This document shows positions 37,652-53,589 of a DNA stretch of 59,973 nt, piece by piece (position 1 is the stretch's first letter; every line of letters begins with the position of its first letter). Source of the DNA: a virus. The DNA is taken from IMG/VR virus record IMGVR_UViG_3300045988_079322; one strand, written 5' to 3'. The notes under the pieces were generated by a model, which was given only the letters and a program-made list of their open reading frames with translations, was not told the DNA's origin and searched no databases. The position numbers and the translations under genes were made by a program.

Positions 37652-39307
37652 TCACTGTATGATTGCGGTTTGGCTGTTGACCAACATAACAAACTTTACA
37701 AACGCCTTTACTAACTAGAGGAGAAATCTAAGTGTTCTAAATATACTCCATTGTGTTTAAAATAGGAACACTAATATGCAAGTTCAATCCCTCCTTTATG
37801 ACGAACTTTCTTGATTAGCTATTGTCTTATCAGACTTTTCGCCATCTTCCTTCTTTGGCCTTCCGGCCCCATTACTGTTAGTTGAACTTGTCTATTTATT
37901 CTAAGAATTAGTATTAGATGACTAATTATTATTACCCAAATCTTTTCCGCTTCTGGTATTAGAACTCATAGGAGGAATCATAATCTCCGCCAAGTTCAAT
38001 ACTTCATTCTCAAATGTTAATGTAGCTAAGATGCTTGATTGAGAATGCCCTAAAGCGATTTGTGGCAACATCTTAGAATATCCTAACTGAGCGTGTTCTT
38101 TATACAACTTTGATAATTCTTTATAATTAAACTATGTTGTCTCTAACATCTCAGCTCTAAATTCATAATGATTCTTGCGGCTAAATTTTTCTACCACTCT
38201 ATTTAGTAATTCTGTAAACATAAGAGGTATATCTCTAACGCTAGATTCATCAGTCAATATAGAATTTGTTACAGCAATATTTCCATCGGCATTAAACAAA
38301 TTATGAGTTACACCTGAATTGTTGTAAACTGTACGTTCAACCTTTTCCAAATCGTCGGTTGTTGTATTGGAGTTATTGTCTTTTGTATCAATTTTTTCAA
38401 TGTCCGCAAAAGTTGTCAATACATCTACTCCAATAGCTCTTTTAAGCATAGCAACCGCGTTATTATGAATATCTCTAGCTTCATCAACGTCAAAAATTAA
38501 ATCACCATTCTTATCAAGAGGCAACTTCTAAATGATGATTTTCAATAGTTGCTACATTGTTTTTTGACGATCCAATTCTTGCGCCTAATCCAAATCAATA
38601 ATAGAAGGAATAACTCCCGCAAGGAAAGGAAATTCATTATCGTTTAAGCTAAACTTAACTGAAACACTAGGATCTAGAGGATACCAAACAGTTGTACTCC
38701 CCGGATAATCCCCCTTTAATTTCCCCTACTTATAAAGAATATAAGCCTTCTATATATCTTGAGGAAAAATCTTTAATATCTGAACCTTATACTGCGGATT
38801 TGGGAAATAAACATCAAAAAATTCAAGATTTAATTCAACAATAGGGTTAGGGCCTTGGAAATATCTATTGCGACAATATGAAGCAGGTAGTTTCTAAATG
38901 GCAAACCTATCCCCGAAGTCAATAATTATGCCATAATATGCCCCTTCTTTGATAATATCTAATGATATATTGCCAAACATTCTCTTTATATTAGATTTAT
39001 CAAGATAAAGCAATACTTTAGAAAAGTCTTTTAATAGCTTCTCCTTATCTTTCCGCGCGCTTACGGTATATGGGGTTATATACCAATCAAATCTGTATAA
39101 GAAAGCTAGGTATTTACATAATCTGTAATATATACCACTACTTTCATAGAAATAATTAGAAATCTCTCTTAGAGTTCTATAATCATGCTTATAGATAGCA
39201 TTTAATACGAACTTCTTATCTCCATAATTTCTATTTATTTTCTTATATGTACCTAGATTAATAAGCGCATCATCTACCGAGCGAAGCCCCACCCGCATCT
39301 TAGCATA
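37652..39307 (-). CDS. Portal protein candidate, about 550 aa, many TAG
   Basis: Fragments 38894..39298, 38132..38524 and 37922..38107 share one frame and join through TAG codons. Lies between the terminase and scaffold genes. TGA at 37652-37654. Confidence 0.45.
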
Positions 39308-39429
39308 ATCAACGCTCTTATAATCTAAGTCGTCCTCTTCCTCTTGCTACTAATAGCGAGTAACGTCTTGATTTAATAAATCAAAACCTTTGGCTCTAAT
39401 ACTTTCTTGTCTACTCTTTAACAAAATAT

Positions 39430-39804
39430 CACCTCCCGGATTCAGTATCCAGCCTTGCTCATTAAGTAATCATAAGAGATGATATTTTCCTCGGTATAGG
39501 GAACTTCTATAAGCGTAATTCCTTTTAAGGCACAAAATCTACGCTTTTGATTATCATTATATTTCTATTGATATAATCCTCTATTTCCACCAAATTTACT
39601 TACAGCCTAATAGTGCTATTTTCCTTGATATTCAATTAAAAAATCAAGATTTCCATCGTCATCAAAAACAGCAAAATCAAAACGAAGTGGTCTACCGCTT
39701 GGCGCTTTTAACCCAGGAAATTCATACTCTTCTTTAAAGTTTATGCCATTTTGCTCTAGTATTTCATGAATTTTAATTTCTCCACGACTAGCTTTCATAC
39801 TCAC
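39430..39804 (-). CDS. Vsr/DUF559-like PD-(D/E)xK nuclease (homing-endonuclease-like) inserted between the large terminase and portal genes. 3' end approximate.
   Basis: Motif RFDFAVFDDDGNLDFLIEYQGK-TAG-HY...QKRRFCALKGITLIEVPY. ATG overlaps the large terminase TGA (ATGA). Confidence 0.4.
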
Positions 39805-41546
39805 ACCTCGCTCATAAACATAAAGTCTGAAAATCTTCTACTTTTACGCTTGCGTTTACTATCTTCTTCCTATTTAATATAATACAACCCATATTCAAGC
39901 GCAGAGAATTTATCTTTAGGCACGGATTTATTTGCTTGTTTCAAAATAATATTCACGCCTTCATTTTCTTCTCGCAAATTCAGCATTTCTTCTCTTAATA
40001 TAGAAGTTAAAGTGAACGGTTTTAAATATTCTGCCCGTTCTTCTGGTTTCATAGCCTAACCTTTTTTAGTACCAAGCAATTTATTTCTTGCGACTTTTTC
40101 ATCAATCAAAAATCTAAGTTTTCCTGCTCTTAATTGTGTCTAAACATTACTATGTGCCTCGGTATTAATAGGGGCGTTAGCCTTAATTTCATAAATAGCA
40201 TCATATTCCGTATTCTCTGTTCTAAATCGTTTATACTCACCATCTTCATCATTGGCCACACCAAAGTCAGGAAAAACTTCATTGGTATCAGGCACTATCT
40301 AAGGCTTAACCATATAATCCATCAATCCGGCGCCAAGGCCATTACCGTCGATTACAATAATCTTAGCCTTATAATTATAATATAATCTCTTTAACTTAAT
40401 TGCCTAGTCTTCAAAATGTTCATCGTCCATAGTATATATATTTACCAAAGACTTTATAGCAGGTCCTTGTGACTAAGGAGTTACCTTAAAGACACAAACA
40501 ACAGATTGACATTTCTTTCTACCTACATCAACAGAAAGAACATAATAAGCCTGTGCAGAAGATCTTCCAGACGATTCATATTCAGGCTAAAGAAGTTTTC
40601 TACTTCTATCAAAAGCATCTCCATTAAAGAAAGCATCTTCAACAGTTCCACTCCACTTAGATTCATACTCTCTATCGAATGAAGCTTCATTAAAAGTACC
40701 GTCCTATTTTAGTTCCTATACGAAATTGCGGGATTGCAATCCTACTAGTACAGGAATTCTCCATGTTCCGCCCATAACAATACTCTTTTCTGGTTCTAAT
40801 ATCATGCGTACAAGGAGAGTAATAAGTTTATTGTAGGGGAACGTATTCTTCCATCCCGCAGTAGTAACATAAATCTAGGATTTATTGAGTGTTTCCTCTT
40901 CATGAACAGAACCATCTAAACATCTTCTATCAACGTTCATCAAGGGAATTAAAACTTCGTTTAGAATATCTCCATCTACGCCGACGCACTCCTCAATAAG
41001 TCCGCCATGTCTACGTTTACCACGAGAAGATTCTCTAGCTGCTACGTTATCAAAGTAGGAGCCGTTTTTGAAGATATATTTACAATAATCTTTTCCTTCC
41101 TATGTCTTACCTCGTCTCCAATCAATTTCTCTTTGGAGCGCGGGGATTGCATTACATATTTCCTAGACTTTTTCTTTAGCAATTCCAGCTGCTTGTTCCT
41201 TTCCTCCAGAAGTAATGAATAACTTACATCCGGGATATAAAATACATCTACACATAAGCACCATTACAGAAAGAAATGACTTAGAATAAGCACGGGGGAA
41301 TACCATGTATACATACTTATACCGCATTGCGGCCCGCAAGAAAACTCTCTAGTAAAAATAAAAGTTAATTTCTTTTTTCCTAGTTTCATCCCCACCAGTC
41401 TGCAAGAAATCAATAAACATATCTGGATATTCTCTCCAAAAAGCTATATACTATCTTGCCGCGGGGATTATGGCTCGAACTCTTTCTTCTGAAAGACCAA
41501 TCTTTTTATTATTATTCGAGAGGTTTAATAAATCTTTTAATGCCAT
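39801..41546 (-). CDS. terL: Terminase large subunit, about 581 aa, about 12 in-frame TAG
   Basis: AAGGAGG Shine-Dalgarno then ATG 41544-41546. ATPase-like stretch ...KLFITSGGKEQAAGIAKEKV-TAG-EICNAIPALQREIDWRRGKT-TAG-EGKDY...SSRGKRRHGGLIEEC, and a C-terminal nuclease-like stretch IVIDGNGLGAGLMDYM. TGA at 39801-39803. Confidence 0.7.
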
Positions 41547-43900: not shown

Positions 43901-44239
43901 ATGTTTTTCGATACACCCTATTCTGAATTACCAAAACGAGCATAGTATTACTTTAACATTTTAATTATAAGCATAGCAGTATAGCCAGAAGTTCTAACAG
44001 ACATACTTGGACATAAAAACACTGTTGACTTATGGGATGTTCAAAATATCAATAATGCAAGACCAACGGCTTTGCATATTTATGCTTCATATAATTTAGA
44101 TAGAGATTCTGATTATGAAATATGTTGTATCCCACATTAGGTTTTAGAAATAACGCCTAATAACAAAATATCATTCTATGATATGATTGATTATGATACT
44201 GATGATCCATGGGGGCTAGAACCAGATGCAATAGATTAA
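43901..44239 (+). CDS. Hypothetical protein, 112 aa, with 3 in-frame TAG
   Basis: ATG after AGGGAGG. Coherent frame through TAG at 43943, 43982 and 44123. TAA at 44237-44239. Confidence 0.4.
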
Positions 44240-45017
44240 CATAAAAGAATATTTTAAACAATAGAAAGATGAATTGCGGCAGTCCGATGTCAAGCCATCA
44301 TTGACCATAATTGATGCAACTAACGGGGATGCCGGAAATTAGATTTATATATAGAAAAAAGTAGACGACTTTGATGAATTAGGATGGCCAGTAAGCGTGA
44401 TTAAAGTTCCAGAACACTGGACTCCCGCAGATTTAAATAATTACATAAATAGTATAGATACTGATTGTATTATAGCACAAATGCCACTAAGAGATTCATT
44501 GAGTTCTTTTTCTATTGATGTAATTCCTACGATAAAAGACTGCGACGGTTTAACTTCTTCTACTCTTGTTTTACCGGCAACGGTAAGAGGAATAGTAGAC
44601 TATCTTGATGACTGTGGTTTTAAGTATGAAGGTAAAAGTGCTTTAATATTAGGTAGAAGTAATATAGTTGGTAAGCCAATGGCGAAAGAGTTGTTGGCGA
44701 GAAATATGACTGTATCTATCTGTCACAGTAAAACAAATGTAAATGCGAAGCTTTATTTAGCAAGAATAGCAGATTTAGTAGTATCCGCAGTTGGAGATTT
44801 TACTTTGACAAGAGAGGCTTGCCCTCACGCTATTGTTGTTGATGTTGGTATTCGTAGAAATTAGGCGAATTTTATTCAAGGCGATTTTGTTGAACTTGAA
44901 GATATTGCAAAGAGAAATGAAGTGTGGTCAACTCCTGTGCCCGGAGGGGTGGGATTATTGACTAGATTGGGGTTGATGAAAAATTGCTTATAGTTAGCGA
45001 AACAGGCGCGAAGATAA
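44226..45017 (+). CDS. folD: FolD-like bifunctional methylenetetrahydrofolate dehydrogenase/cyclohydrolase, about 263 aa, 6 in-frame TAG
   Basis: N-terminal ...GDAGN-TAG-IYI-TAG-KK... aligns with the FolD SNPASQIYVASKRK motif. Central GKSALILGRSNIVGKPMA matches the Rossmann-fold GxSxxVGxPM. C-terminal VVDVGIRRN-TAG-ANFIQGDFV...STPVPGGVGLLT matches VIDVGINR...TPVPGGVGPMT. TAA at 45015-45017. Confidence 0.75.
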
Positions 45018-45376
45018 TGAAATTCTCAGAAGATTTTGATAATTATGCTAGAGAGGTTCTTCATATTGAAAATCCTTTTCGAGAATTTTATCGTACACAG
45101 GATTCAACATTTAAGACTAATATTGATGGCAGCATAACAGTAGATATGGAGAAATCCAGAGAAATATACAGAGAAACAAAAATAAATAGAGAAGAATGGG
45201 TAAAGCTGAGGAATAGATATATCGCAGAAAGAATATTGCGAGAACTCGGGTATGAAGTCCTATTAGCTTCGTCTTATTTTGAGGATTACCCTGATGCAAT
45301 TCCCTGTGATGGAGCTACAGGACAGTGTTTACTAGATTGTAGAATAAAGGGGTGTAAATATGAACCCATGCATTGA
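45017..45376 (+). CDS. Hypothetical protein, 119 aa
   Basis: ATG overlaps the FolD stop (TAATG). Intact, TGA stop. Confidence 0.45.
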   Translation: MKFSEDFDNYAREVLHIENPFREFYRTQDSTFKTNIDGSITVDMEKSREIYRETKINREEWVKLRNRYIAERILRELGYEVLLASSYFEDYPDAIPCDGATGQCLLDCRIKGCKYEPMH

Positions 45377-45575
45377 TTATTGTTATCTTAGATTGCATCA
45401 ATAGTATGATCCAATTAGATGCGATGATTCATGCGAATATGCAAAAGTAATAAAAGAAAACAAAGAGTTAAAGTAGAAGATCGAGGAATTAAAAACTCAA
45501 CACACTTTATTTGAAAAATAAAATAAGACAATTATTTAATTTTGCCCAACGGCATTTTTATAAAAGGAGGCCGCG

Positions 45576-46340
45576 ATGACAAAACAAGAGCGCGCAATCA
45601 AGGCACGAGCGCATTATGAAGATATTAAAACTAGACTTGCCGCAAACACTAAATTATCTATCGAGCGCACATATGTATATAGTCCAGATTCTTTTACACA
45701 GCATGAATCCGGCAATCAGAAACCAGCTTTTACTCTAACAGATATGGATAGCGTATCTTGTCTATTCAACTTATCTGACAATGGTAGAACAGCAATTCTT
45801 AACTATGCCAGTTATAAAAGTCCTGGTGGTTTCTTCCTAGAAGGTAGTCCTGCGCAAGAAGAGGCTCTGTGTCATGAATCCAATCTTTACCCTATTCTTC
45901 TTGCTTTTGATGGGACGTATTACGCATGGAATCGGCAGAGGTTAAATAAGGCTTTATACTTGAATAGAGCGCTGTATTCTCCTAGTGTAGTATTCGAGCG
46001 GAATGACAAACAAAAGAAAGCAGATGTTATAACTTGCGCGGCCCCGAATTTCCGAACGGCGCATAGATACCAGAGTGTGAGTAAAAGCGAGAATGATAGA
46101 GTTCTTGAAAATCGAATTCACTTTATGTATCAGATTGCTGAGGAAAACGGTGTGGAAAATCTAGTCGCGGGAGCTTGGGGTTGTGGAGTTTTTATGCAGG
46201 ATCCGTACACGGTCGCAACCTTACTCATAGGCGCAGCACGCAATTATAATATTCCAAATATTTATTTTGCAATTCCTGACCGCAATTCCCAGAATTTTAG
46301 AGCATTTTTGAAAGCAGGTAAAGAATGTATAAACAGTTAA
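45576..46340 (+). CDS. Macrodomain protein of the bacterial PARG-like DUF2263/TIGR02452 type, 254 aa
   Basis: AAAGGAGG Shine-Dalgarno. Motif SPGGFFLEGSPAQEE fits the PARG signature GG-x6-8-QEE. No TAG. Confidence 0.65.
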   Translation: MTKQERAIKARAHYEDIKTRLAANTKLSIERTYVYSPDSFTQHESGNQKPAFTLTDMDSVSCLFNLSDNGRTAILNYASYKSPGGFFLEGSPAQEEALCHESNLYPILLAFDGTYYAWNRQRLNKALYLNRALYSPSVVFERNDKQKKADVITCAAPNFRTAHRYQSVSKSENDRVLENRIHFMYQIAEENGVENLVAGAWGCGVFMQDPYTVATLLIGAARNYNIPNIYFAIPDRNSQNFRAFLKAGKECINS

Positions 46341-46762
46341 TTATAGCTAGAAAAGATTTAAATATGTCTCCGGGTAAGCTAGCTGCGCAAGTTTCCCATG
46401 CTTCTATTGCTTTTCTTTTGGAAAAGATTCTTTGGGGAAGCAAAGAAGTGGTTCGGGAAAGAGATGGCATTATGTATCATATGGATATAAGTCTCGATAC
46501 AGACTTATTCCATGATTGGATAACTGGAGCAGAAACTAAAGTTGTTTGCCGCGCGAAGAATAAAGATGATTTATTGCGAGCGGTCGAAGCAGCTAAAGAG
46601 CTTGGTATGGAGGAGTATAAAGATTACTTTTTGATTTATGATGCTTGCAGGACAGAGCTGGAAAAAGAGAGTCCTGAAGGGACTCTCACTTGTATTGGAT
46701 TTAGACCAATGGAAGCTGAGGAGATTGATAAAATTGGGAAGAAATATCAATTATACCATTAA
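46325..46762 (+). CDS. Peptidyl-tRNA hydrolase, PTH2 family, 145 aa
   Basis: N-terminus LIIARKDLNMSPGKLAAQVSHASIA matches the PTH2 signature (xVVRxDLxMxxGKxAAQxxHA). Overlaps the end of the macrodomain gene by 16 nt. Confidence 0.65.
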   Translation: MYKQLIIARKDLNMSPGKLAAQVSHASIAFLLEKILWGSKEVVRERDGIMYHMDISLDTDLFHDWITGAETKVVCRAKNKDDLLRAVEAAKELGMEEYKDYFLIYDACRTELEKESPEGTLTCIGFRPMEAEEIDKIGKKYQLYH

Positions 46763-46785
46763 GGGATATTTTTGCCCTAACTGTG

Positions 46786-46825
46786 GAGAAAAGATGAAAG
46801 GTTAAAAGTTTAGCCTTTCATCTTT
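46786..46825 (+). terminator. Intrinsic terminator after the macrodomain/PTH2 operon
   Basis: GATGAAAGG-n12-CCTTTCATC followed by TTTTTTT. Confidence 0.6.
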
Positions 46826-47027
46826 TTTTCGTTATTGAGATTGAAAGTGCGATTTAGATTTTGAAATGGCGTGGCAGAACGAATTTGCGAAAAAATTTCC
46901 AGTTTTTCCCAAAATACACGCCCCTCTTTCACATGGTAAAGTATTGAAGTGTAGTTGGCCTCTTTCGCTCGCTAAAGTACGAAAGCAAGAAAGCACGCCC
47001 CTAAAGGAATACGCGCGCGTAAAGGGT

Positions 47028-47068
47028 TTGTGCAAACTGCACAACAAGATGTTATTTATTTTGTGCAA
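47028..47068. promoter_or_regulatory. Cluster of three TTGTGCAA / TGCACAA half-sites (operator-like)
   Basis: TTGTGCAA at 47028 and at 47061, TGCACAAC at 47038. The same octamer as in the cassette operators. Confidence 0.4.
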
Positions 47069-47098
47069 AAGAGAGAGAAAGAAATTTCAAAAAAACTA

Positions 47099-47127
47099 TT
47101 GACAAGTGAGCGTTTTGGTGGTAAACT
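47099..47127 (+). promoter_or_regulatory. Promoter: TTGACA-17-TAAACT
   Basis: Consensus -35, 17-nt spacer ending GTGG. Confidence 0.5.
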
Positions 47128-47194
47128 GGACTTGTCCAGTAGGACAGAGACAAAAGCACAGCACTTTGAAAATTAAAAAATTTCAAAAAAGGTA

Positions 47195-47223
47195 TTGACA
47201 AACTGCTAAAGGTTTGATACAAT
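47195..47223 (+). promoter_or_regulatory. Promoter: TTGACAAACT-17-TACAAT (class A consensus)
   Basis: TTGACA at 47195, TACAAT at 47218. Confidence 0.6.
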
Positions 47224-47276
47224 ACAGACAGAACAAAAGAGAATCACACCACAAAAAGAAAGGGAGTCAAAAGAGT

Positions 47277-47651
47277 ATGAAAAAGATTGATTTTACCAAT
47301 GAAGATCGAGCCATTATTATGGAGTATATGGCGGCTAAGATGGCTAAGTCTGCGGCGGAGGCGGCGGAGAAAGCAGCTAAGGCTAAGGCTAAAGAGCTAT
47401 TCTCCAGATTAGGTAAGGCTTTTAAGGCTACGGACAAAACAAGTTATCTATATGGCACGGTACAAATGCAGGGTAAGGCGAAAGCGGTGGTATATAAAGA
47501 AACTACCGCAAAAGGAACGGTTGACTGGAAAGCCTATGCTATGGCATTAGGTGGAACGGAAGCCGAAGCAGAGCAATTCCGCAGACCTTCCGATATTCGT
47601 ACCTCTTTTGATTGGGCGACAAAGACCCAAGAAGAAGAAATTAGAGGATAA
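47277..47651 (+). CDS. Hypothetical early protein, 124 aa, Ala/Lys-rich N-terminus
   Basis: AAAGGGAG Shine-Dalgarno then ATG 47277. TAA stop. Confidence 0.5.
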   Translation: MKKIDFTNEDRAIIMEYMAAKMAKSAAEAAEKAAKAKAKELFSRLGKAFKATDKTSYLYGTVQMQGKAKAVVYKETTAKGTVDWKAYAMALGGTEAEAEQFRRPSDIRTSFDWATKTQEEEIRG

Positions 47652-47660
47652 CAGTTTATA

Positions 47661-47696
47661 AACCCTGCCTTGCAAAACACAAGGCAAGGCAGGGTT
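47661..47696 (+). terminator. Hairpin terminator
   Basis: AACCCTGCCTTG-n12-CAAGGCAGGGTT. Confidence 0.45.
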
Positions 47697-47726
47697 ATAA
47701 TAATTAAAAGAAAGGGGTATACTATA

Positions 47727-47873
47727 TGTATCAATTACAGGTTTTAGCCAATGAGAAAATGCGCTATTATGAACCATCCACCCTTTCAATGGCAAGATGG
47801 AAAGCCAGTCACGAGATAGTCAATCCCAATCATTGGATTGTAGATTTATCCAGTGGAGAAATCGTAGATTAAA
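47727..47873 (+). CDS. Micro-ORF, 48 aa
   Basis: AAAGGGG Shine-Dalgarno then ATG 47727. TAA at 47871-47873. Confidence 0.3.
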
Positions 47874-47918
47874 AAGAAGCTGACCTAACGGCTATACGGG
47901 GAGAAAGGATAAAAGACT

Positions 47919-48221
47919 ATGAACAATTATATTAAGTGGTTCGTTGGGCCTACTTTTAGAAAGCATGAATTTATTAAACTTTTGCGGTATAAGATGAATG
48001 TGCGTTCCGCAGAGGTAGAGGACGGCATCATCTTAGACCTGGATGCTTTTAATGCCATGCGAGTGGCCTATATGCCACACTGGGCTTATATCAATAGAAA
48101 GTTTATCAATAGCAATCTGCATACCAGAATTGCAAGCGAAGATGAATATAAGATTGCTATGGTTGGAGATACAATCGGTACTGAATGGGTTAAAGAACAG
48201 GAGGCAAAGAAATGGAAATGA
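47919..48221 (+). CDS. Hypothetical protein, 100 aa
   Basis: Intact ORF after GGAGAAAGG. TGA stop. Confidence 0.45.
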   Translation: MNNYIKWFVGPTFRKHEFIKLLRYKMNVRSAEVEDGIILDLDAFNAMRVAYMPHWAYINRKFINSNLHTRIASEDEYKIAMVGDTIGTEWVKEQEAKKWK

Positions 48222-48364
48222 GAATTATTAAGCGGATAGGAGGCGGCATTTGTGCCGCTCTCCTACTCTGGACAGTTCTTAGTTGGGCTGATATAGTGGC
48301 GGATAACTGTGAGCCAAACCCACAGCACAGCGAATATAATATGTTCGTTCTCATGACTAAATAA
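48218..48364 (+). CDS. Micro-ORF, 48 aa, hydrophobic N-terminus
   Basis: ATG overlaps the preceding TGA (ATGA). TAA stop. Confidence 0.3.
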   Translation: MRIIKRIGGGICAALLLWTVLSWADIVADNCEPNPQHSEYNMFVLMTK

Positions 48365-48376
48365 TAGGAGGAAAAA

Positions 48377-48610
48377 ATGTATAGAGGGACTTATATCGAC
48401 GCCATGGGCCGCAAGCGCAGAGAGATGGGATATTTCAGTCTTAATAAGCCCACTCTGAATAAACTCCATATACCAGTAATTGTCCAAGCGAGAGATAAGA
48501 CAAGTGCGGCGAATAAAATCAATAGGAAATATAAATTGCGTATAAGTCCCAGCAATCTGCGGGAGGTGCCGATGGGCACGGGCTATCTCATGGAAACCAT
48601 GGAGCTGTAA
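48377..48610 (+). CDS. Hypothetical basic protein, 77 aa
   Basis: AGGAGG Shine-Dalgarno then ATG. Confidence 0.45.
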   Translation: MYRGTYIDAMGRKRREMGYFSLNKPTLNKLHIPVIVQARDKTSAANKINRKYKLRISPSNLREVPMGTGYLMETMEL

Positions 48611-48687
48611 AGGAATAATACTTGACTGGCAATCTACACAAAGATTGCCAGTCATTTTTATGCACTTTTCCATATTGACTTTTCGCC

Positions 48688-48720
48688 GGGCCGCCAGCGT
48701 GCGCCGCGGCCCGAATTTTT
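48688..48720 (+). terminator. Cassette copy 1: GC-rich hairpin terminator
   Basis: GGGCCGC-n11-GCGGCCC followed by AATTTTT. Confidence 0.5.
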
Positions 48721-48795
48721 ATTTATTCGGCAATTTCAACAATTATATGACCGAAAGTTTGTGCAATTCGACGAAAGTTTTTCTCCCGAAATTAC

Positions 48796-48824
48796 TTGAC
48801 ATTCCTTTTCCCATGTGTTATTAT
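48796..48824 (+). promoter_or_regulatory. Cassette copy 1 promoter: TTGACA-17-TATTAT with TGT
   Basis: Preceded by TTGTGCAA at 48749-48756. Confidence 0.55.
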
Positions 48825-48877
48825 ATACTTGTCCAAAGGGACAGGTCACAAAAAGAATTTGAAAGGAAGTAAAAAAA

Positions 48878-49117
48878 ATGACTTTAGATATGGTTGCTTG
48901 GTTACTTTCTCCGCTTGCAGAAGATACTATGTTCTTTGACGGGGAGGGATTCGAAATTATCAATAAGAATACCCAAGCTCATTACCATGAATTACCTGAT
49001 GGTAGAATAACTCTGGGAGGAGACGTAATCGAGGTATCTAAGGAATGGGTTCTGGGACTTCAGGTAACCGACATTGAGGCAAGAGATAACAATTTAATCA
49101 TTTATGTAGATGGTTAA
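48878..49117 (+). CDS. Hypothetical protein, 79 aa
   Basis: Intact, after GGAAGT Shine-Dalgarno-like sequence. Confidence 0.45.
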   Translation: MTLDMVAWLLSPLAEDTMFFDGEGFEIINKNTQAHYHELPDGRITLGGDVIEVSKEWVLGLQVTDIEARDNNLIIYVDG

Positions 49118-49179
49118 GAAAACTTGCGGGAGTGGAGGCCACAAACCTCTACTCCCCACGATAAAAAGGAGGAATAAAT

Positions 49180-49395
49180 ATGATTGCTGTTATTAAATTT
49201 GAAAGTGCAGAAAAGTCTGTGGAGTTTGGAAACACAATTTGTAATATGGCTGGCTGGTGTTTGGGTCATCCTCTCAATTCCAATGCTACCGGCTGTGTTT
49301 GTACACTTGATTTTAATACCGGCGACAAGCAAGATAGAGCCTTATATAATTATCTGCTAAAAATTGGAGCTTTCGAGGAGGTGGAACTAAAGTGA
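49180..49395 (+). CDS. Hypothetical protein, 71 aa
   Basis: AAAGGAGG Shine-Dalgarno. Confidence 0.45.
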   Translation: MIAVIKFESAEKSVEFGNTICNMAGWCLGHPLNSNATGCVCTLDFNTGDKQDRALYNYLLKIGAFEEVELK

Positions 49396-49510
49396 GTATT
49401 GAGCGTTTACCGCATACATATCCTATCGGTTCCACTGTTTGGACAAATAAGGGATATGGCACAGTTCTACTTCACATTGGTAAATACCATCTGGTTTGGC
49501 TACAGAGATT

Positions 49511-49546
49511 AGGGCTGGCGTAATGCCGGCCCTATTGATTTTTTCA
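49511..49546 (+). terminator. Intrinsic terminator
   Basis: AGGGCTGGC-GTAAT-GCCGGCCCT followed by ATTGATTTTTT. Confidence 0.5.
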
Positions 49547-49597
49547 AAAAAATATATTATAATAATTATAGAAAAATAAAGAAAGGAGTTTTTCTAA

Positions 49598-49714
49598 TGA
49601 CCTTAGAAGTGCTGAAAGCACTCGCGGTTATTTTGGAGTTCTGTTTGAACTAGGATTCTTGCAAGAATTGTCCTATGTCTCAGTTCTGCCAGAAAATGCC
49701 TTGCGAGTGGTAAA
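49598..49714 (+). CDS. 38-aa Cys-rich micro-protein with one in-frame TAG
   Basis: AAAGGAG Shine-Dalgarno then ATG 49598. ...EFCLN-TAG-DSCKNCPMSQFCQKMPCEW, TAA stop. Confidence 0.3.
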
Positions 49715-49801
49715 TGTTCCTTCCGATTGTTCTAAATCGGCGATTCCCGTGATGGAGTCGTTTTTCGCACGAGCCTAGGTCACTAGAATTTATTTATCAA
49801 A

Positions 49802-50035
49802 ATGCAAGAAACTACTTTCTCTCGCAAATTGGATTCAAGTGGTAGAATTATGATTCCGATTCGTTTGCGTGAACAAATGGGACTTACTTCCGGTTAGGAA
49901 TACTATTTCACTACTATGGTAAAAGATGGCAGAAAATACATCTGCATTGACTGCGGATCGGTTGATTCCTCACTTGAAGAAGCTATGAAAATTATCCAAG
50001 CAAACGGATTAAAGATTGTTGAAAATGCCGATTGA
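49802..50035 (+). CDS. AbrB/MazE-family (swapped-hairpin) DNA-binding protein, 77 aa, interrupted by one in-frame TAG
   Basis: RKLDSSGRIMIPIRLREQMGLTSG-TAG-EYYFTTMVKDGRKYI matches the AbrB/MazE consensus (GRVVIPIELRRxLGIxEKDxLEI). TGA stop. Confidence 0.5.
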
Positions 50036-50079
50036 CTTCTCAAAAGAAAGGGAGTTGTTGGTATGCAGAAATTAATGAC

Positions 50080-50110
50080 CTCCTGAAATTCAGGAGGTTC
50101 TTTTTTTATT
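50080..50110 (+). terminator. Intrinsic terminator
   Basis: CCTCCTGAAATTCAGGAGG followed by TTCTTTTTTT. Confidence 0.6.
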
Positions 50111-50115
50111 CGTTC

Positions 50116-50152
50116 GCCCGGCCGTGCACCACAGGCGCGGCCGGAATTTTTT
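50116..50152 (+). terminator. Cassette copy 2: GC-rich hairpin
   Basis: CCGGCCG-n13-CGGCCGG followed by AATTTTTT. Confidence 0.5.
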
Positions 50153-50165
50153 ATCAAGAGGCAAT

Positions 50166-50197
50166 TTGCACAATTTTAGGCTCGAATTGTTGTGCAA
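50166..50197. promoter_or_regulatory. Cassette copy 2 operator: TTGCACAA-N16-TTGTGCAA perfect inverted repeat
   Basis: TTGCACAA at 50166-50173 and TTGTGCAA at 50190-50197. Confidence 0.55.
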
Positions 50198-50226
50198 TCT
50201 GATGGAAGATTTTTTCCCAAAATCGC

Positions 50227-50255
50227 TTGACTTTCTATCTGTTATCTGTTATACT
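50227..50255 (+). promoter_or_regulatory. Cassette copy 2 promoter: TTGACT-17-TATACT, followed by the conserved leader ATCATCAAGAGGGGAGAAC
   Basis: 17-nt spacer. The leader 19-mer at 50260-50278 is identical to 53034-53052. Confidence 0.55.
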
Positions 50256-50308
50256 TGTATCATCAAGAGGGGAGAACAAAAGCCCTCGAAACAAAAGGAG
50301 AATGAGTT

Positions 50309-50542
50309 ATGTATCTGGTAATGGCTGACAGTAGAGAAAAGATTATCGGCGTTTCTGATACTGAAACTGGCGCACGCCATGCGGGATGGGACTGGCTCAA
50401 GGCCCAGTATTCCGAAAGCGAGTGGAGCCAAATTCTGGAAGATATGGACTATGAGAATGAAGGGGACTTGCGGCATGACCTTCTCATGGGCGCATATTGG
50501 GAAGATTTCGATATGGAGATTATCGAGGTTAAGAGGGTATAA
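50309..50542 (+). CDS. Hypothetical acidic protein, 77 aa
   Basis: AAAAGGAG Shine-Dalgarno. Confidence 0.45.
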   Translation: MYLVMADSREKIIGVSDTETGARHAGWDWLKAQYSESEWSQILEDMDYENEGDLRHDLLMGAYWEDFDMEIIEVKRV

Positions 50543-50571
50543 ACCCTCTTAACCAGAAAAGGAGTATATAT

Positions 50572-50724
50572 ATGACTACCTTCACAATGATTGTTTTGAT
50601 TGCGTTTGTGGCCTGCCTTGCATGGCAGTTAATGGCGGCTGCTCAAAAGAGCTGTATTCGGCTTGAAATCATGTTTGCCGCAGAAATTCTAATGTTCGCA
50701 TATTTGGCAAAAAATTTGATGTAA
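50572..50724 (+). CDS. 50-aa hydrophobic micro-protein (single transmembrane)
   Basis: AAAAGGAG Shine-Dalgarno then ATG 50572 (MTTFTMIVLIAFVACLAWQLMAA...). TAA at 50722-50724. Confidence 0.4.
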   Translation: MTTFTMIVLIAFVACLAWQLMAAAQKSCIRLEIMFAAEILMFAYLAKNLM

Positions 50725-50728
50725 AGGG

Positions 50729-50757
50729 TTGACAAACCGCTTAAACAGTGGTATAAT
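50729..50757 (+). promoter_or_regulatory. Class A promoter: TTGACAAACC-17-TATAAT (ends GTGGTATAAT)
   Basis: Consensus hexamers, 17-nt spacer. Confidence 0.6.
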
Positions 50758-50808
50758 CAATAATGTAAAGAGAAGGAAAACTCATTAAACCAGAAAGGAA
50801 ATATTGCT

Positions 50809-51039
50809 ATGTATAGAATGACTGAGCAGGATAGACAGGGGATTATTCTTCTGCATAAGACCATGGAGGAGTTCTGCCCAGGAGAAGCAGCACAGGCAAT
50901 GCTCCAGTCTTTGGGAAAATTCCTGCGGATCGGCATGTGTACTCCCGATGACGCGGCCGATATTATCAAGGGTATTTTCGATGAGGAAGCCGATAAGACA
51001 GTTGATGAAATGACTATGATGGATTTACTTTCCTTGTAA
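50809..51039 (+). CDS. Hypothetical protein, 76 aa
   Basis: Intact ORF after GAAAGGAAA. Confidence 0.45.
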   Translation: MYRMTEQDRQGIILLHKTMEEFCPGEAAQAMLQSLGKFLRIGMCTPDDAADIIKGIFDEEADKTVDEMTMMDLLSL

Positions 51040-51047
51040 AAAAGGGG

Positions 51048-51076
51048 TTGACAAACTGCCCCTTCTGTGGTACAAT
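51048..51076 (+). promoter_or_regulatory. Class A promoter: TTGACAAACT-17-TACAAT
   Basis: TTGACA at 51048, GTGGTACAAT at 51067-51076. Confidence 0.6.
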
Positions 51077-51136
51077 AAGACTATGGAAGGGGCAGCCCCC
51101 CAAAAATAAATTAAAATAAGAAAGGGAGTTTTAGAA

Positions 51137-51535
51137 ATGCGTGTTACTAAGAGGATTGAAGCCTATATCAATGATGAGGTCAACAAGATTGCGAACGCCA
51201 AGCGAGAGGAAATCAGAGCCAAGTATGCGGACGCTATGAAAGAGTTTGAGGATTTCATCGAGGAAGGCCGAAAAGAGATTGAGGCGCTGAATACAAGGAT
51301 TATTGAGCGCGCCACAGCGAAGGGATATAAGCTCCGCCGCTATTATGACCAGGAGTGTGCCAAGTCAAATATGTGCAGTCTTTACAACCCCATCAACCAA
51401 ACGATGGATGAAGAGCTGTCCACTGTGACAAAGTGGGTAGAGGAAAATGCAAGTCTGATCTGCGTCAAGCTGGAAATGGGCGGCGACATGAAAACTCTGT
51501 CTACTCTGCTTGAAGAACTGCGCAAGGAGTTTTAA
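51137..51535 (+). CDS. Hypothetical protein, 132 aa, predicted helical
   Basis: GGGAG Shine-Dalgarno, TAA stop. Confidence 0.45.
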   Translation: MRVTKRIEAYINDEVNKIANAKREEIRAKYADAMKEFEDFIEEGRKEIEALNTRIIERATAKGYKLRRYYDQECAKSNMCSLYNPINQTMDEELSTVTKWVEENASLICVKLEMGGDMKTLSTLLEELRKEF

Positions 51536-51586
51536 GGAAGGAGGTGGAGAGGGCAAGGCTATTGCTTGCCCTCTCTAATAAAAAAA

Positions 51587-52045
51587 ATGAAAGCAACTGG
51601 CATTGTGCGCCGCGTTGATGATCTCGGCCGGGTAGTAATTCCTAAGGAAATTCGTCGGAATATGAATATTCGGGAGGGCGACCCGCTAGAAATCTTTATT
51701 GAAGATGGCGGAGTGGTTTTCAAGAAATATTCTCTACTATCTTCTTTTGCTCCTCAGGCCGCACATATTCAAAAAGTTTTGAGCATTAACGGCATTTCCG
51801 CGTCGGTTTTTGATAATTCAAGTCTTTTGTGCGGTCCTCGCCCCTTCGGAATGTCAAAGACCCCGGACGAATGGCTCAATATTCGTAATTGGGGTACTGA
51901 ATGGAAGGGAAAGTCGTTGTTTGTTACTCCTATTATCGCAGAAGGTGAGGTAATCGGCTTTATTTGCTATAAAAACGATAAAGAATCGGCGCATGATATG
52001 ATTCGACTTTCTGCGCAATTTCTAGCTCAATTTGCAGAAAACTAA
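51587..52045 (+). CDS. SpoVT/AbrB-type transcriptional regulator, 152 aa: N-terminal swapped-hairpin DNA-binding domain plus a C-terminal (GAF-like?) domain
   Basis: MKATGIVRRVDDLGRVVIPKEIRRNMNIREGDPLEIFIEDGGVVFKKY closely matches the AbrB N-terminus. ATG 51587 follows a hairpin at 51551-51571. Confidence 0.6.
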   Translation: MKATGIVRRVDDLGRVVIPKEIRRNMNIREGDPLEIFIEDGGVVFKKYSLLSSFAPQAAHIQKVLSINGISASVFDNSSLLCGPRPFGMSKTPDEWLNIRNWGTEWKGKSLFVTPIIAEGEVIGFICYKNDKESAHDMIRLSAQFLAQFAEN

Positions 52046-52068
52046 GAGGGCTTCGGCCCTCTTTTTTT
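52045..52068 (+). terminator. Intrinsic terminator
   Basis: AGAGGGC-TTCG-GCCCTCT followed by TTTTTT. Confidence 0.6.
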
Positions 52069-52084
52069 ATATCAAAATTTCGAC

Positions 52085-52115
52085 GGCGCGCTGACGCTCA
52101 CAGCGCGCCGAGTTT
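52085..52115 (+). terminator. Cassette copy 3: GC-rich hairpin
   Basis: GGCGCGCTG-n7-CAGCGCGCC followed by GAGTTTTCTT. Confidence 0.5.
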
Positions 52116-52130
52116 TCTTGTTTGTAAGTT

Positions 52131-52162
52131 CTACACAATTTTTGACTTGAAATCTTGTGCAA
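52131..52162. promoter_or_regulatory. Cassette copy 3 operator: CTACACAA-N16-TTGTGCAA (left half degenerate)
   Basis: Same spacing as copies 2 and 4. Confidence 0.4.
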
Positions 52163-52171
52163 TTTGCCATC

Positions 52172-52200
52172 TTGAAATTATCCTTAAATTATGGTATTAT
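52172..52200 (+). promoter_or_regulatory. Cassette copy 3 promoter: TTGAAA-17-TATTAT with TGG
   Basis: The segment GCCATCTTGAAATTATCC...TATGGTATTATTA is nearly identical to copy 4. Confidence 0.55.
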
Positions 52201-52227
52201 TAGTACAGAAAGAAGGAGGGACACTAA

Positions 52228-52452
52228 ATGAAACCTTCAAAGTTTATTCGGCCTAATGAGTGTTTAACTGTGGCTGAAATCTACCGCCGCCAATTTGGTG
52301 GTACTACCACCCCAGAGAATTATGGGGTCTATATGCAAGCTATTCTTTTGCGCGACCCTCTAATTTATGTGGATTATACGTCAATGCCTTATAAGGTATA
52401 TCGGCATAAAAATTTCTTTGAAAAACTTGTTGACAAGATAGGCAACAGGTAG
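52228..52452 (+). CDS. Hypothetical protein, 74 aa. Its TAG terminator lies inside the next promoter.
   Basis: AGGAGGG Shine-Dalgarno. The stop is TAG 52450-52452. Read-through would add 12 residues, up to TAA 52487-52489. Confidence 0.45.
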   Translation: MKPSKFIRPNECLTVAEIYRRQFGGTTTPENYGVYMQAILLRDPLIYVDYTSMPYKVYRHKNFFEKLVDKIGNR

Positions 52453-52458
52453 TATAAT
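52430..52458 (+). promoter_or_regulatory. Promoter: TTGACA-17-TATAAT overlapping the 3' end of the preceding gene
   Basis: TTGACA at 52430, TATAAT at 52453. Confidence 0.55.
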
Positions 52459-52480
52459 AAAACAAAAGGAGGTTATATAT

Positions 52481-52945
52481 ATGATAACTAAAAAAATGCT
52501 CTGCTTTGATATGGATGGGACTATTGCAGATCTGTATGCAGTCCCTAACTGGCTCGAAAAACTCCGCAAGGGAGACCCCAGCCCATTCCAAGACGCCGCC
52601 CCTATGTGGGATATGAAGGCCCTTCGAAATGCGCTTCTAAACGCAATCAATAAAGGGTGGGAGGTTAGAGTTATTACATGGTTGCCCCCTGAAAGCCCCC
52701 CTGAATATAAGAAAGCAGTCACAGCCGCCAAAAAGGAATGGCTTGCAAGGCATAAATTTCCGGCCCATAAATGCCATTGTGTGGCGTATGGAACAACTAA
52801 AGCTAAATGCGTATTCCGCAGTTTTTATGAACCGCCGTTCATTCTCTTTGATGATAACGACAAAATTAGAAACGGCTGGCATTTAGGGGATACTGTAGAC
52901 CCCCAAACTACAAACATTATTGAATATATCAACAATCTGGACTAA
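52481..52945 (+). CDS. HAD-superfamily 5'(3')-deoxyribonucleotidase-like protein (NT5C family), 154 aa
   Basis: HAD motif I CFDMDGTIADL at the N-terminus. ILFDDNDKI resembles a C-terminal Asp motif. Overall size and layout match NT5C-type dNMP nucleotidases. Confidence 0.55.
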   Translation: MITKKMLCFDMDGTIADLYAVPNWLEKLRKGDPSPFQDAAPMWDMKALRNALLNAINKGWEVRVITWLPPESPPEYKKAVTAAKKEWLARHKFPAHKCHCVAYGTTKAKCVFRSFYEPPFILFDDNDKIRNGWHLGDTVDPQTTNIIEYINNLD

Positions 52946-53002
52946 ATAAAAGGGGCGGGTGAAATCCCCGCCCCATATCTGGAAAATACGTAAAAAAGTT
53001 CT

Positions 53003-53030
53003 TGACAATCTCACTACATTGTGATATAAT
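53003..53030 (+). promoter_or_regulatory. Promoter: TTGACA-16-TATAAT, followed by the conserved leader ATCATCAAGAGGGGAGAAC
   Basis: Leader at 53034-53052. Confidence 0.55.
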
Positions 53031-53079
53031 TTAATCATCAAGAGGGGAGAACCCTCATAAAAGAAAGGGAGTTTTTGTT

Positions 53080-53228
53080 ATGATGAATTTCTACTTTAAG
53101 ACTGCGGCGGGCCATGTGTTCGTGGGTGTGGGTAAGGATGTTGACCGCGCCCGTTCTGACGCCAAGCGCAAGGCTGGTTCCCTTTGGTCGCCTTCGGCCA
53201 AGTGCTTTAAGGTCGGGAACGCCATTTA
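53080..53228 (+). CDS. Micro-protein, 48 aa, basic
   Basis: AAAGGGAG Shine-Dalgarno then ATG 53080. TAA at 53226-53228. Confidence 0.35.
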
Positions 53229-53260
53229 AGGCGTTCCCCGATAGGAAGGAGGTCTCAAAA

Positions 53261-53452: not shown

Positions 53453-53454
53453 AT

Positions 53455-53490
53455 AAAAGCGGGGTGAAAATCCCCGCTTTTATTTTTTTT
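53455..53490 (+). terminator. Intrinsic terminator
   Basis: AAAGCGGGG-TGAAAAT-CCCCGCTTT followed by a T-run. Confidence 0.6.
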
Positions 53491-53497
53491 ATAACTT

Positions 53498-53535: not shown

Positions 53536-53548
53536 TTCTATTGTAATG

Positions 53549-53580: not shown

Positions 53581-53589
53581 AATGCCATC

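Follow-up and report, generated by a model that had tools for sequence, protein, structure and literature searches.

Recurrent, facultative linkage of a PARG-type macrodomain and a PTH2-family peptidyl-tRNA hydrolase in a TAG-recoded gut phage and other diverged lineages

The ADP-ribosylation of RNA by toxins and its reversal by PARGs were shown only in 2025. The activities of PARG on RNA have been demonstrated for the enzyme from D. radiodurans, which is the closest solved relative of the phage protein described here (Lu et al., NAR 2025, PMC11833690). The 2'-OH ADP-ribosylation of RNA by the toxin RhsP2 has been found to be reversed by no hydrolases other than bacterial-type PARGs. These enzymes likewise remove ADP-ribose from 5'-phosphate ends and shield cells from RhsP2, and their published specific substrates are ribose-ribose and phosphate-linked ADP-ribose. 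On the side of the peptidyl-tRNA hydrolases, the acetylation of aminoacyl-tRNA by TacT is reversed by Pth (PMC9241777), and PTH2, already described across jumbo phages, has been proposed to help phages repair RNA and rescue ribosomes (Iyer et al., Viruses 2021, PMC7824862). No description of phage use of PARG-type RNA de-ADP-ribosylation was found in the literature searched. Likewise, searches on PTH2 and recoding, on PARG and gcADPR, and on Pth and macrodomain neighbourhoods returned no earlier description of the two genes as a pair. What is new here is the PARG-PTH2 pairing; both families were already known.

The pair lies in a stretch of 59,973 nucleotides of viral DNA (IMG/VR record IMGVR_UViG_3300045988_079322), hereafter the window, which is part of a ~147 kb TAG-recoded phage common in the human gut. 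Among public assemblies, human-gut metagenomes included, the sample blocks that contain this phage number well over a thousand. No GenBank phage was matched by positions 44000-48000 in a megablast search, and at the DNA level the phage is accordingly without a cultured or deposited relative. That the phage is recoded, as an initial annotation made from the sequence alone had supposed, is borne out, and its reliance on the codon is heavy, with 305 TAG codons and with TAG accounting for 51% of the Gln-type codons in late genes. Within the PARG and PTH2 genes, in contrast, none of the 13 Gln-type codons is TAG (P ~9e-5). The absence of TAG is consistent with expression of the pair early in infection, before the code switch.

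Two overlapping open reading frames are read from the sequence at 45576-46762, as first annotated. The PARG gene (45576-46340, + strand) encodes 254 amino acids and the PTH2 gene (46325-46762, + strand) encodes 145; both run from ATG to TAA with no in-frame TAG, and PTH2 starts 16 nt inside the 3' end of PARG. The pair is kept with the same 16-nt overlap in six IMG/VR contigs and one MAG contig, and both genes are under purifying selection, with dN/dS values of 0.04-0.17 overall (0.13-0.17 for PARG and 0.04-0.11 for PTH2). Both genes are therefore real and constrained. A Shine-Dalgarno sequence, AAGGAGG (45564-45570, + strand), lies 5 nt 5' of the PARG start codon, and its AAAGGA core is kept in four relatives. 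Downstream of PTH2, the transcription unit is closed by a hairpin terminator (46785-46830, + strand) with a 21-bp stem (dG -30.9 kcal/mol, z -4.7); none of 200 shuffled sequences folded equally well. Directly upstream of PARG, frame translation reveals a Cys-rich ORF of 55 codons (45360-45527, + strand), which contains two in-frame TAG codons and shows synonymous-type substitutions in relatives. This ORF occupies most of an apparent 199-nt gap 5' of PARG, leaving ~48 nt before the gene, and it is here that TAG-containing genes give way to TAG-free ones, the TAG-free block running over 45576-57437. A sigma-70 scan returned only weak sites and no convincing separate promoter for the pair, and the repeats of the conserved upstream blocks ACACACTTTATTTGAA and TTTGCCCAACGGCA within the window are not above chance. 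For a putative operon, the features seen are a shared strand, the conserved overlap and the strong terminator, with only a short gap upstream and no convincing promoter.

The first gene encodes a bacterial-type PARG macrodomain. Its product matches PF10021 (1.2e-25, 91 bits, cut-off 23.5) and, over residues 10-244, TIGR02452 (8.1e-54, 182.9 bits, cut-off 50). Both matches exceed the curated cut-offs and agree with the initial annotation of a PARG-like macrodomain (DUF2263). The GG-x8-QEE signature noted there is present as G84-G85-x8-Q94-E95-E96 (45825-45863, + strand) and aligns to the GGG...QEE motif of the D. radiodurans enzyme (DrPARG), the family signature being GGG-X6-8-QEE. P83, G84, G85, Q94, E95 and E96 are invariant across 16 diverse homologues, and the third glycine of the GGG motif is replaced by F86 at a position that varies within the clade (F/Y/G/L/M). 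The diphosphate-binding loop G199-A-W-G-C-G-V-F206 (46170-46193, + strand) aligns to GAWGCGVF of DrPARG, with G199, G202, C203, G204, V205 and F206 invariant. The best PDB matches are the PARGs of D. radiodurans and T. curvata, that of D. radiodurans being the closest (7e-21). The AlphaFold2 model (pLDDT 88.5) superimposes on 3sih (T. curvata) and 5zdc (D. radiodurans) with TM scores of 0.76-0.82, so that the protein is predicted to adopt a macrodomain fold with a diphosphate-binding loop. Neither PARG nor PTH2 matched any family among the PADLOC models, DarG included, at E <= 0.1, which indicates that the pair is not DarG-like and is not part of a known defence system. The DarTG-like systems proposed earlier as targets are for this reason unlikely: the domain is of the PARG type, and the published PARG-specific substrates differ.

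The second gene was likewise placed in the family proposed for it, the match to PF01981 (1.2e-23, 84 bits, cut-off 23) covering positions 1-115 of the 115-position profile; the protein also matches phrog_1866. It scores 84 bits where the NCBIfam equivalog NF003314 demands 126, and 67.3 bits where TIGR00283 demands 82, and hence a substrate specificity identical to that of archaeal Pth2 cannot be assumed. Judged by its sequence, it is a family member from a divergent subfamily with a 30-residue insert. The N-terminal active-site motif GKLAAQVSHA, recognized in the initial annotation, spans residues 17-26 (46373-46402, + strand) and aligns to GKiaAQvaHa of archaeal Pth2 structures. The D-x3-T motif of Pth2 is present as D106-A-C-R-T110 (46640-46654, + strand), aligning to the D and T of Ta0108 and PH1539. 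G17, K18, D106 and T110 are invariant among 13 members of the subfamily, and in the alignment K18, D106 and T110 fall opposite their counterparts in 1rlk and 1wn2. The roles of the active-site lysine and of the D-x3-T residues are presumably those they have in S. solfataricus Pth2. In the AlphaFold2 model (pLDDT 86.4), the protein is predicted to have the Pth2 alpha/beta fold, with target-normalised TM scores of 0.82-0.84 to 1rlk, 3erj and 1xty, and the top 14 PDB matches of the model are all Pth2 or Bit1. A subfamily-specific variable insertion at about residues 39-53 (46439-46483, + strand) is modelled as a beta-hairpin, whose strands (39-45 and 48-53) have pLDDT values of 65-80; the length of the insertion ranges from 0 to ~60 residues among homologues.

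The linkage of the two genes recurs beyond this phage. PARG and PTH2 are found no more than 3 kb apart, in either order, in at least five and probably six diverged lineages. In the window clade, PARG precedes PTH2 and overlaps it, while PTH2 precedes PARG in L022/23/25/26 and a DUF4406 gene separates PARG from PTH2 in L180. PARG is also within 3 kb of PTH2 in L146, L122 and L100, the PARG match in L100 being weak and partial. Additionally, at least two contigs of 120-157 kb carry both genes roughly 9-13 kb apart. Among the neighbours within two genes of PARG in 17 viral lineages, PTH2 ties for the most frequent; these are small, raw lineage counts without phylogeny correction or a formal null model, made per family rather than per protein, with key cases re-scanned individually. 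Between sister clades, the side of PTH2 on which PARG is inserted differs, and the two PARGs are diverged (41-45% identity). The sister-clade PARG forms a ~800-bp cassette that is present in some genomes and missing from others with 93-96% identical flanks. The linkage is facultative: about 30 of 36 PTH2 lineages have no nearby PARG, most PARG loci have no PTH2, and Lak phages possess PARG without a detectable PTH2. Among the best 120 matches of either search, no PARG-PTH2 fusion was found as Rosetta-stone evidence, and the sole fusion was PARG-YAcAr/SLOG.

In other genomes, the neighbours of each gene include functions in RNA repair and tRNA metabolism. tRNA genes lie within 1 kb of PTH2 in seven of the 36 lineages, and in L130 PTH2 is located inside an array of 34 tRNAs. 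RtcB is encoded directly downstream of PTH2 in L038, Thg1 adjoins it in L106 and L122, and fusion proteins of PNK, Metallophos and a T4 Rnl1-type ligase adjoin it in L062 and L095. Metallophos, the top protein neighbour of PTH2 overall (five lineages), also occurs together with Rnl beside PTH2 in L157 and in the order Metallophos-PTH2-ligase in L007. PARG is followed by an OB-RNA ligase and a kinase-HD protein in L231 and by an AAA protein and an RNA ligase in L189. These contexts fit the broad suggestion of the initial annotation that the pair could counter a tRNA-directed attack. In the window phage, the pair stands alone: no RNA ligase, PNK, RtcB, Thg1 or tRNA is encoded in the 60-kb window or in flanks of ~4-5 kb at each end. 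Because the RNA-repair genes that adjoin homologues elsewhere are missing from the window and these flanks, the pair would work alongside or like RNA repair rather than form an RNA repair operon.

The reading we prefer, with a probability of roughly 0.45, is that PARG and PTH2 form an early pair that de-blocks RNA, chiefly tRNA. They would constitute a compact, translationally coupled and probably early cassette of two hydrolases that strip blocking groups from the RNA of the translation apparatus. PARG would cleave ADP-ribose held in ribose-ribose (2'-OH) or phosphate linkages, and PTH2 would hydrolyse the ester by which the 3' end of tRNA carries a peptide or an N-blocked amino acid. Through the joint action of the two enzymes, tRNA and other RNA that has been modified, stalled or corrupted by toxins would become usable again. 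The damage could come from RNA ADP-ribosyltransferases, from aminoacyl-tRNA acetyltransferases, from anticodon nucleases, which would leave peptidyl-tRNA fragments, or from heavy phage translation. A stricter version, in which the two enzymes are an obligate pair acting on a single toxin-ADP-ribosylated tRNA or peptidyl-/aminoacyl-tRNA, seems improbable. In that case ADP-ribose would be attached to a ribose hydroxyl, for instance at or near the 3'-terminal A76, and full restoration of the tRNA would need both its removal and that of the acyl or peptidyl group.

Both genes occur in accessory regions that collect unrelated counter-defence genes, so their adjacency may instead reflect a shared insertion hotspot. 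PARG would then act on a target other than RNA, either soluble ADP-ribose signals of immunity such as 2'cADPR and 3'cADPR or ADP-ribosylated protein or PAR, and PTH2 would independently add to the host Pth during heavy phage translation. We consider this explanation unlikely but worth serious weight. The gain and loss of the PARG cassette between near-identical genomes and the many loci with only one of the two genes are what a hotspot would produce, and in the view of Iyer et al. (2022) the phage domains that process ADPr are directed mainly at soluble derivatives. Moreover, a ribose-ribose O-glycosidic bond, of the kind present in poly(ADP-ribose), closes the cADPR isomers, and phages are able to hydrolyse it with the unrelated enzyme RyDEP (PMC13232231); in Clostridia the PAR made by bacterial PARPs is degraded by bacterial PARGs. 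However, diverged PARGs lie on different sides of PTH2 in the sister clades, and the two genes are also adjacent in three or four other lineages, among which are loci without recoding signs over the stretch covered; a single hotspot does not account for all of this. Phage PARGs also adjoin RNA ligase and PNK genes, the literature search found no link between PARG and gcADPR, and no PARP or ART domain is encoded in the early region of the window.

The initial annotation had suggested that PTH2 recycles peptidyl-tRNAs dropped at poorly suppressed TAG codons. A PTH2 that exists because of recoding would suit the heavy reliance of the late genes on TAG, and a TAG-free PTH2 could be made before late translation begins. 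A tRNA(CUA) suppressor also lies 775 bp from PTH2 in L082 and ~5 kb from PARG in L189. The window pair itself does not adjoin a code-switch module of the kind carried by recoded phages (suppressor tRNA, aaRS, release factor), no tRNA or suppressor tRNA being encoded in the window or in L243 and L246, the loci that flank it. Counting against the proposal, premature action of RF1 at TAG frees the peptide with no requirement for Pth. The distribution of the gene gives it no support either. Among the 36 lineages of the window's PTH2 subfamily, clear recoding occurs only in the window phage group itself, as judged from the local stretch of sequence at each locus. In the largest viral lineage (51 loci), the PTH2 gene is terminated by a TAG stop. 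Further subfamily members occur in Faecalibacterium, Lachnospiraceae and Treponema genomes, and the presence of the subfamily in phage and bacterial loci that read as standard-code over the stretch covered leaves a link to recoding unsupported. The adjacency of PARG and PTH2 is likewise seen where signs of recoding are absent, and a survey of recoded phages (Borges et al.) mentions neither gene and does not include them among code-switch genes. Nor is a phage-encoded PTH2 unusual, as had been thought. tblastn detects it in 46 GenBank phage records, mostly of cultured phages, such as Xanthomonas XacN1, C. difficile phiCD211, Sinorhizobium phiM12, mycobacteriophage Baka and Enterococcus phages. 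The window PTH2 is ~30-36% identical to those of cultured phages, and the family has its own PHROG (phrog_1866) besides its description in jumbo phages in 2021. Recoding was rejected as a general reason for PTH2, given that most PTH2 and PARG loci lack recoding signs over the stretch covered, and for this phage the drop-off explanation is improbable and simply not needed. PARG might also serve to reverse, or give immunity to, the action of an ADP-ribosyltransferase that the phage itself encodes for host takeover in the style of T4 Alt, ModA and ModB, with PTH2 unrelated. Writer/eraser pairs are common in ADP-ribosylation systems, and the ~147-kb genome extends ~85 kb beyond the window. Still, this role is very improbable, as no ART, PARP or sirtuin domain occurs among the early-region proteins of the window, the called flank genes or the top neighbour families of phage PARGs.

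The recurrent linkage offers a concrete and cheap enzyme pair to test, for which RNA-targeting ARTs, tRNA acetyltransferases and anticodon nucleases are candidate opponents. Should the linkage prove functional, tRNA-directed ADP-ribosylation would be indicated as a defence of gut Firmicutes, and phage RNA repair would reach beyond the rejoining of breaks to the removal of adducts. An obligate pair on a single substrate, if true, would be a new two-enzyme anti-toxin module and would imply that gut Clostridia hold a still undiscovered family of defences that ADP-ribosylate tRNA. If only a hotspot is involved, the results still correct the assumptions that phage PTH2 is rare and tied to recoding.

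Several known systems resemble parts of the de-blocking pair proposed here. Like the window PARG as proposed here, the antitoxin-like orphan ADP-ribosylhydrolases (NADAR and DarG2-like) that phages direct against DarTG are phage-encoded enzymes that remove ADP-ribose as a counter-defence (PMC11825919, PMC13309987). However, they are NADAR or DarG/TARG1-type macrodomains acting on ADP-ribosylated DNA bases, whereas that of the window is PARG-type. RyDEP, in cleaving the 2'cADPR and 3'cADPR of Thoeris, attacks the same type of bond as PARG does in PAR (PMC13232231), but its fold is unrelated, and acceptance of cyclic ADPR isomers by PARG would be by analogy only. The reversal of TacT toxicity by Pth1 follows the same reaction logic as proposed for PTH2, with an N-blocked aminoacyl ester hydrolysed and the tRNA freed (PMC9241777). 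The folds of Pth1 and PTH2 are unrelated, and an encounter of the phage PTH2 with a GNAT toxin is likewise an analogy only. The PTH2s of jumbo phages share with that of the window an archaeo-eukaryotic type, a large phage, a host that normally uses Pth1 and an RNA-repair/tRNA context, and no PARG partner has been reported for them (PMC7824862). In contrast, the window PTH2 belongs to a subfamily of gut Clostridia and Treponema with a very conserved N-terminus, MYKQLIIARKDLNMSPGKLAAQVSHA, and the variable beta-hairpin insert. The DRB0100-DRB0099-DRB0098 operon of D. radiodurans contains, in DRB0099, a PARG of the same enzyme family as that of the window, with the same QEE catalytic pair and diphosphate loop, although DrPARG retains the GGG motif where the putative hydrolase of the window has Phe as the third residue. 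This operon is bacterial and induced by DNA damage, and its PARG is partnered with a ligase and PNK rather than with PTH2 in a phage; the L231 phage locus has the same ligase, PARG and kinase-HD components in another gene order. Finally, the healing and sealing of tRNA by T4 Pnkp and Rnl1 against the anticodon nuclease PrrC is, like the proposed role of the pair, a phage counter-measure that restores tRNA, and a related ligase adjoins PTH2 in the fusion proteins of L062 and L095. The T4 enzymes rejoin breaks, whereas the window is without ligase and kinase, and the chemistry proposed for its pair would be the removal of ADP-ribose, acyl and peptidyl adducts.

The two plus-strand ORFs of the initial annotation are present exactly as described, and both are ordinary members of known families. 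ORF 1 (45576-46340, 254 amino acids, ATG to TAA) is a bacterial-type PARG. Its assignment as a PARG-like macrodomain (DUF2263) is borne out by profile searches (PF10021, 1.2e-25; TIGR02452, 8.1e-54), with both scores far above the cut-offs. The closest solved structures are the PARGs of D. radiodurans and T. curvata, and an AlphaFold2 model (pLDDT 88.5) gives a TM-score of about 0.8 to each. The motifs P83-G84-G85, Q94-E95-E96 and G199-x2-GCGVF206 are invariant in 16 homologues with identity down to 43%. The suggested connection to DarTG is unlikely, given that the domain is of the PARG type and no PADLOC model matches it. In two homologues (P0200 and P0205, 43-44% identity), PARG is joined to a YAcAr/SLOG domain (PF10686), a fusion that ties the PARG clade to NAD/ADPr-nucleotide-binding modules.

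ORF 2 (46325-46762, plus strand, 145 amino acids, ATG to TAA) is a PTH2, as had been proposed, and matches PF01981 at 1.2e-23 over the whole profile. It scores under the NCBIfam equivalog cut-offs for archaeal Pth2 (84 versus 126 bits) and is assigned to phrog_1866, annotated as 'unknown function'. Residues K18, D106 and T110, all invariant, line up with their counterparts in archaeal Pth2 structures. The structural model (pLDDT 86.4) gives target-normalised TM-scores of 0.82-0.84 to 1rlk, 3erj and 1xty, and a variable insert past residue 31 is modelled as a beta-hairpin. Both genes are under purifying selection relative to their relatives (dN/dS 0.04-0.17, with dS saturated).

The two genes overlap by 16 nt, a Shine-Dalgarno sequence (AAGGAGG, read from the sequence) lies 5 nt ahead of the ORF 1 ATG, and ORF 2 is followed by a hairpin with a 21-bp stem (46785-46830; dG -30.9 kcal/mol, z -4.7). 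The designation of the pair as a two-gene operon is plausible only, since coupled genes and a terminator are present but no convincing separate promoter was found in the upstream region or among repeats of conserved upstream blocks sought in the window. The seeming 199-nt gap upstream of ORF 1 is largely coding. An unannotated Cys-rich ORF of 55 codons (45360-45527), two of them in-frame TAG, overlaps the last part of the preceding gene and stops 48 nt short of ORF 1. It encodes a CxxxC...CxxxC arrangement and then a coiled-coil tail, is kept in relatives with substitutions that look synonymous, and lies exactly where genes with TAG give way to genes without it. A short block, TGCCCAAC(G/C)GCA (45541-45554), lies about 20 nt ahead of the PARG Shine-Dalgarno and is kept in all five relatives, although amino-acid identity in PARG has fallen to 65%. 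This block does not recur elsewhere in the window and could be a small hairpin or operator.

The phage is TAG-recoded. Reading TAG as sense extends the longest ORF from 465 to 2,904 codons, and 305 in-frame TAG codons occur in the minus-strand late block (5480-43812), which includes the portal gene (37796-39424; phrog_2739, 2.8e-81). Directly upstream of the cassette, a phage FolD (methylene-THF dehydrogenase/cyclohydrolase; 44226-45017) contains six in-frame TAG codons. One TAG falls at the position where two bacterial FolD structures have the conserved Gln of their ASQxYV motif, consistent with TAG encoding Gln in this phage. FolD also neighbours PARG in three viral lineages, and its synteny extends to the sister clade. 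The TAG share of Gln-type codons is 51% in the late block and zero among the 13 Gln codons of the pair (P ~9e-5). Most real plus-strand genes at 45576-57437 are likewise TAG-free, a pattern read as standard-code early genes (Borges et al.).

Neighbouring proteins have exact copies in 1,158-1,413 blocks of public assemblies, human-gut metagenomes included. Contigs with such copies reach the genome length of about 147 kb; one longer contig, at 294,660 bp, is possibly a head-to-tail dimer. A close relative is binned with an Oscillospiraceae MAG. The TAG-free block includes one or two AbrB/MazE/SpoVT-type regulators (51566-52045 in the window; 5027-5383 in the flank L243), a Firmicutes-like regulatory signature that may hint at the host. 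A complete diversity-generating retroelement (297-4337) comprises a target gene with Big_3 and DUF6273 domains (297-2102), the variable repeat inside it (1987-2088), a template repeat (2710-2811; 18 of 18 mismatches at template adenines) and a reverse transcriptase (3120-4337; RVT_1, 1.8e-15), and its genes carry in-frame TAG codons. Amid the TAG-rich late block, five TAG-free genes of 176, 464, 185, 350 and 229 codons (27528-28058, 29616-31010 and 34155-36514) could be the virion genes with the highest expression, or genes acquired recently; the 350-residue product matches phrog_4088 (unknown function). A homing/HNH-type endonuclease gene (39442-39804; phrog_9084, 4e-29) lies between the portal gene and a 581-codon gene (39801-41546) whose only PHROG matches are of unknown function and which may encode the large terminase. 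A resolvase gene is located about 5 kb past the left end of the window.

Linkage of PARG and PTH2 within 3 kb recurs. PARG precedes PTH2 with the 16-nt overlap in the window clade, and the order is reversed in the sister clade, whose PARG is 41-45% identical. The two also lie within 3 kb at three loci from bacterial-genome collections (L146, L122 and L100, the last with a weak, partial PARG match), and a further locus, L180, has the layout PARG-DUF4406-PTH2. No signs of recoding were found in the stretch around L122, L100 or L180. In at least two further contigs (120-157 kb) the two genes are separated by 9-13 kb, and the best 80 PTH2 and best 80 PARG matches have nine contigs in common. Homologues were viewed within 8-10 kb on either side, and neighbourhood counts are small and not phylogeny-corrected; PTH2 ties for first among the +/-2 neighbours of phage PARGs in 3 of 17 lineages, a small count uncorrected for kinship. 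The link is facultative. Most PTH2 loci lack PARG and most PARG loci lack PTH2, Lak phages possess PARG with no detectable PTH2, and the sister-clade PARG is a cassette of about 800 bp, with about 220 bp in its place in genomes with 93-96% identical flanks. Roles for PTH2 (2021) and PARG (2025) have already been proposed, separately. The recurrent linkage is a new observation, and the literature searched yielded no earlier description of it or of its TAG-free setting in this recoded and highly prevalent gut phage.

Phage PTH2 is not unusual, contrary to the initial annotation. It was detected by tblastn in 46 GenBank phage records, mostly of cultured phages, and has been described across jumbo phages, where it was proposed to free peptidyl-tRNA when ribosomes blocked by cleaved tRNA are rescued (Iyer et al., 2021; PMC7824862). 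The subfamily in the window has 2,908 database relatives, 134 IMG/VR matches and 70 matches in bacterial genomes; the bacterial copies occur in Faecalibacterium, Lachnospiraceae, Butyrivibrio and Treponema, often adjoined by integrases. Among the 36 lineages obtained by grouping loci at 75% identity, only the phage group of the window is clearly recoded, and the link to TAG recoding suggested in the initial annotation is unsupported. In a 51-locus lineage of 100-167 kb phages, the PTH2 gene itself ends in a TAG stop. Peptidyl-tRNA drop-off driven by recoding, which draws no support from this distribution, is quite improbable.

The best explanation, held at a probability of about 0.45, is that the cassette encodes an early-made pair of adduct-removing hydrolases for translation-system RNA, chiefly tRNA. 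Here we infer the enzymatic activities, substrates and expression timing of the pair: expressed early from TAG-free genes, it would act like RNA repair systems and, in other phages, alongside them. The pair is not filed as an RNA repair operon itself because no RNA ligase, kinase or tRNA gene lies near it in the window or in flanks a few kb beyond. It is possible, if doubtful, that the locus is instead a hotspot of unrelated functions, with PARG cleaving protein-bound PAR or soluble signals such as 2'cADPR/3'cADPR; these signals share the ribose-ribose bond with PAR, so that cleavage is chemically reasonable, but it is undocumented in the literature searched. It is very unlikely that PARG is an eraser for a phage-encoded ART, as none turned up in the early region of the window, the called flank genes or the top PARG neighbours, the available sequence covering all but about 85 kb of the genome.

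For the pair as adduct-removing hydrolases, the company kept by each family elsewhere is informative. tRNA genes lie within 1 kb of PTH2 in 7 of 36 lineages, a small count with kinship uncorrected. PTH2 is inside an array of 34 tRNAs at the locus L130 (3142-8930) and beside tRNA-Gln at L082 (7134-7929), with two tRNA-Gln genes just upstream and a tRNA(CUA) suppressor 775 bp off. At L102 (6625-7155), as at these two loci, the gene is embedded in a large tRNA array. The commonest protein neighbour is a calcineurin-type phosphoesterase (five of the 36 lineages). Individually verified neighbours include RtcB (L038), Thg1 (L106 and L122), an OB-RNA ligase with a phosphoesterase (L157), and the arrangement phosphoesterase-PTH2-ATP ligase (L007). 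Trifunctional PNK-phosphatase-T4 Rnl1 proteins, also individually verified, lie about 0.9-2.3 kb from PTH2 in L062 (9312-11531) and L095 (3554-5725). Each joins a PNK-like kinase (AAA_33), a calcineurin-type phosphatase and a T4 Rnl1-type RNA ligase in a single polypeptide, and is a complete heal-and-seal enzyme.

Known systems provide precedents for both hydrolases. Acetylation of aminoacyl-tRNA by TacT toxin is reversed by Pth (PMC9241777). Among tested hydrolases, bacterial-type PARGs alone reverse the 2'-OH RNA ADP-ribosylation by RhsP2; they additionally remove ADP-ribose from 5'-phosphate ends and protect cells against this toxin (Lu et al., PMC11833690). PARG is followed by an AAA protein and an RNA ligase at L189, and by an OB-RNA ligase and a kinase-HD protein at L231. 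The latter locus combines the three components of the D. radiodurans operon DRB0100-0098 (Lu et al.), but in a different order.
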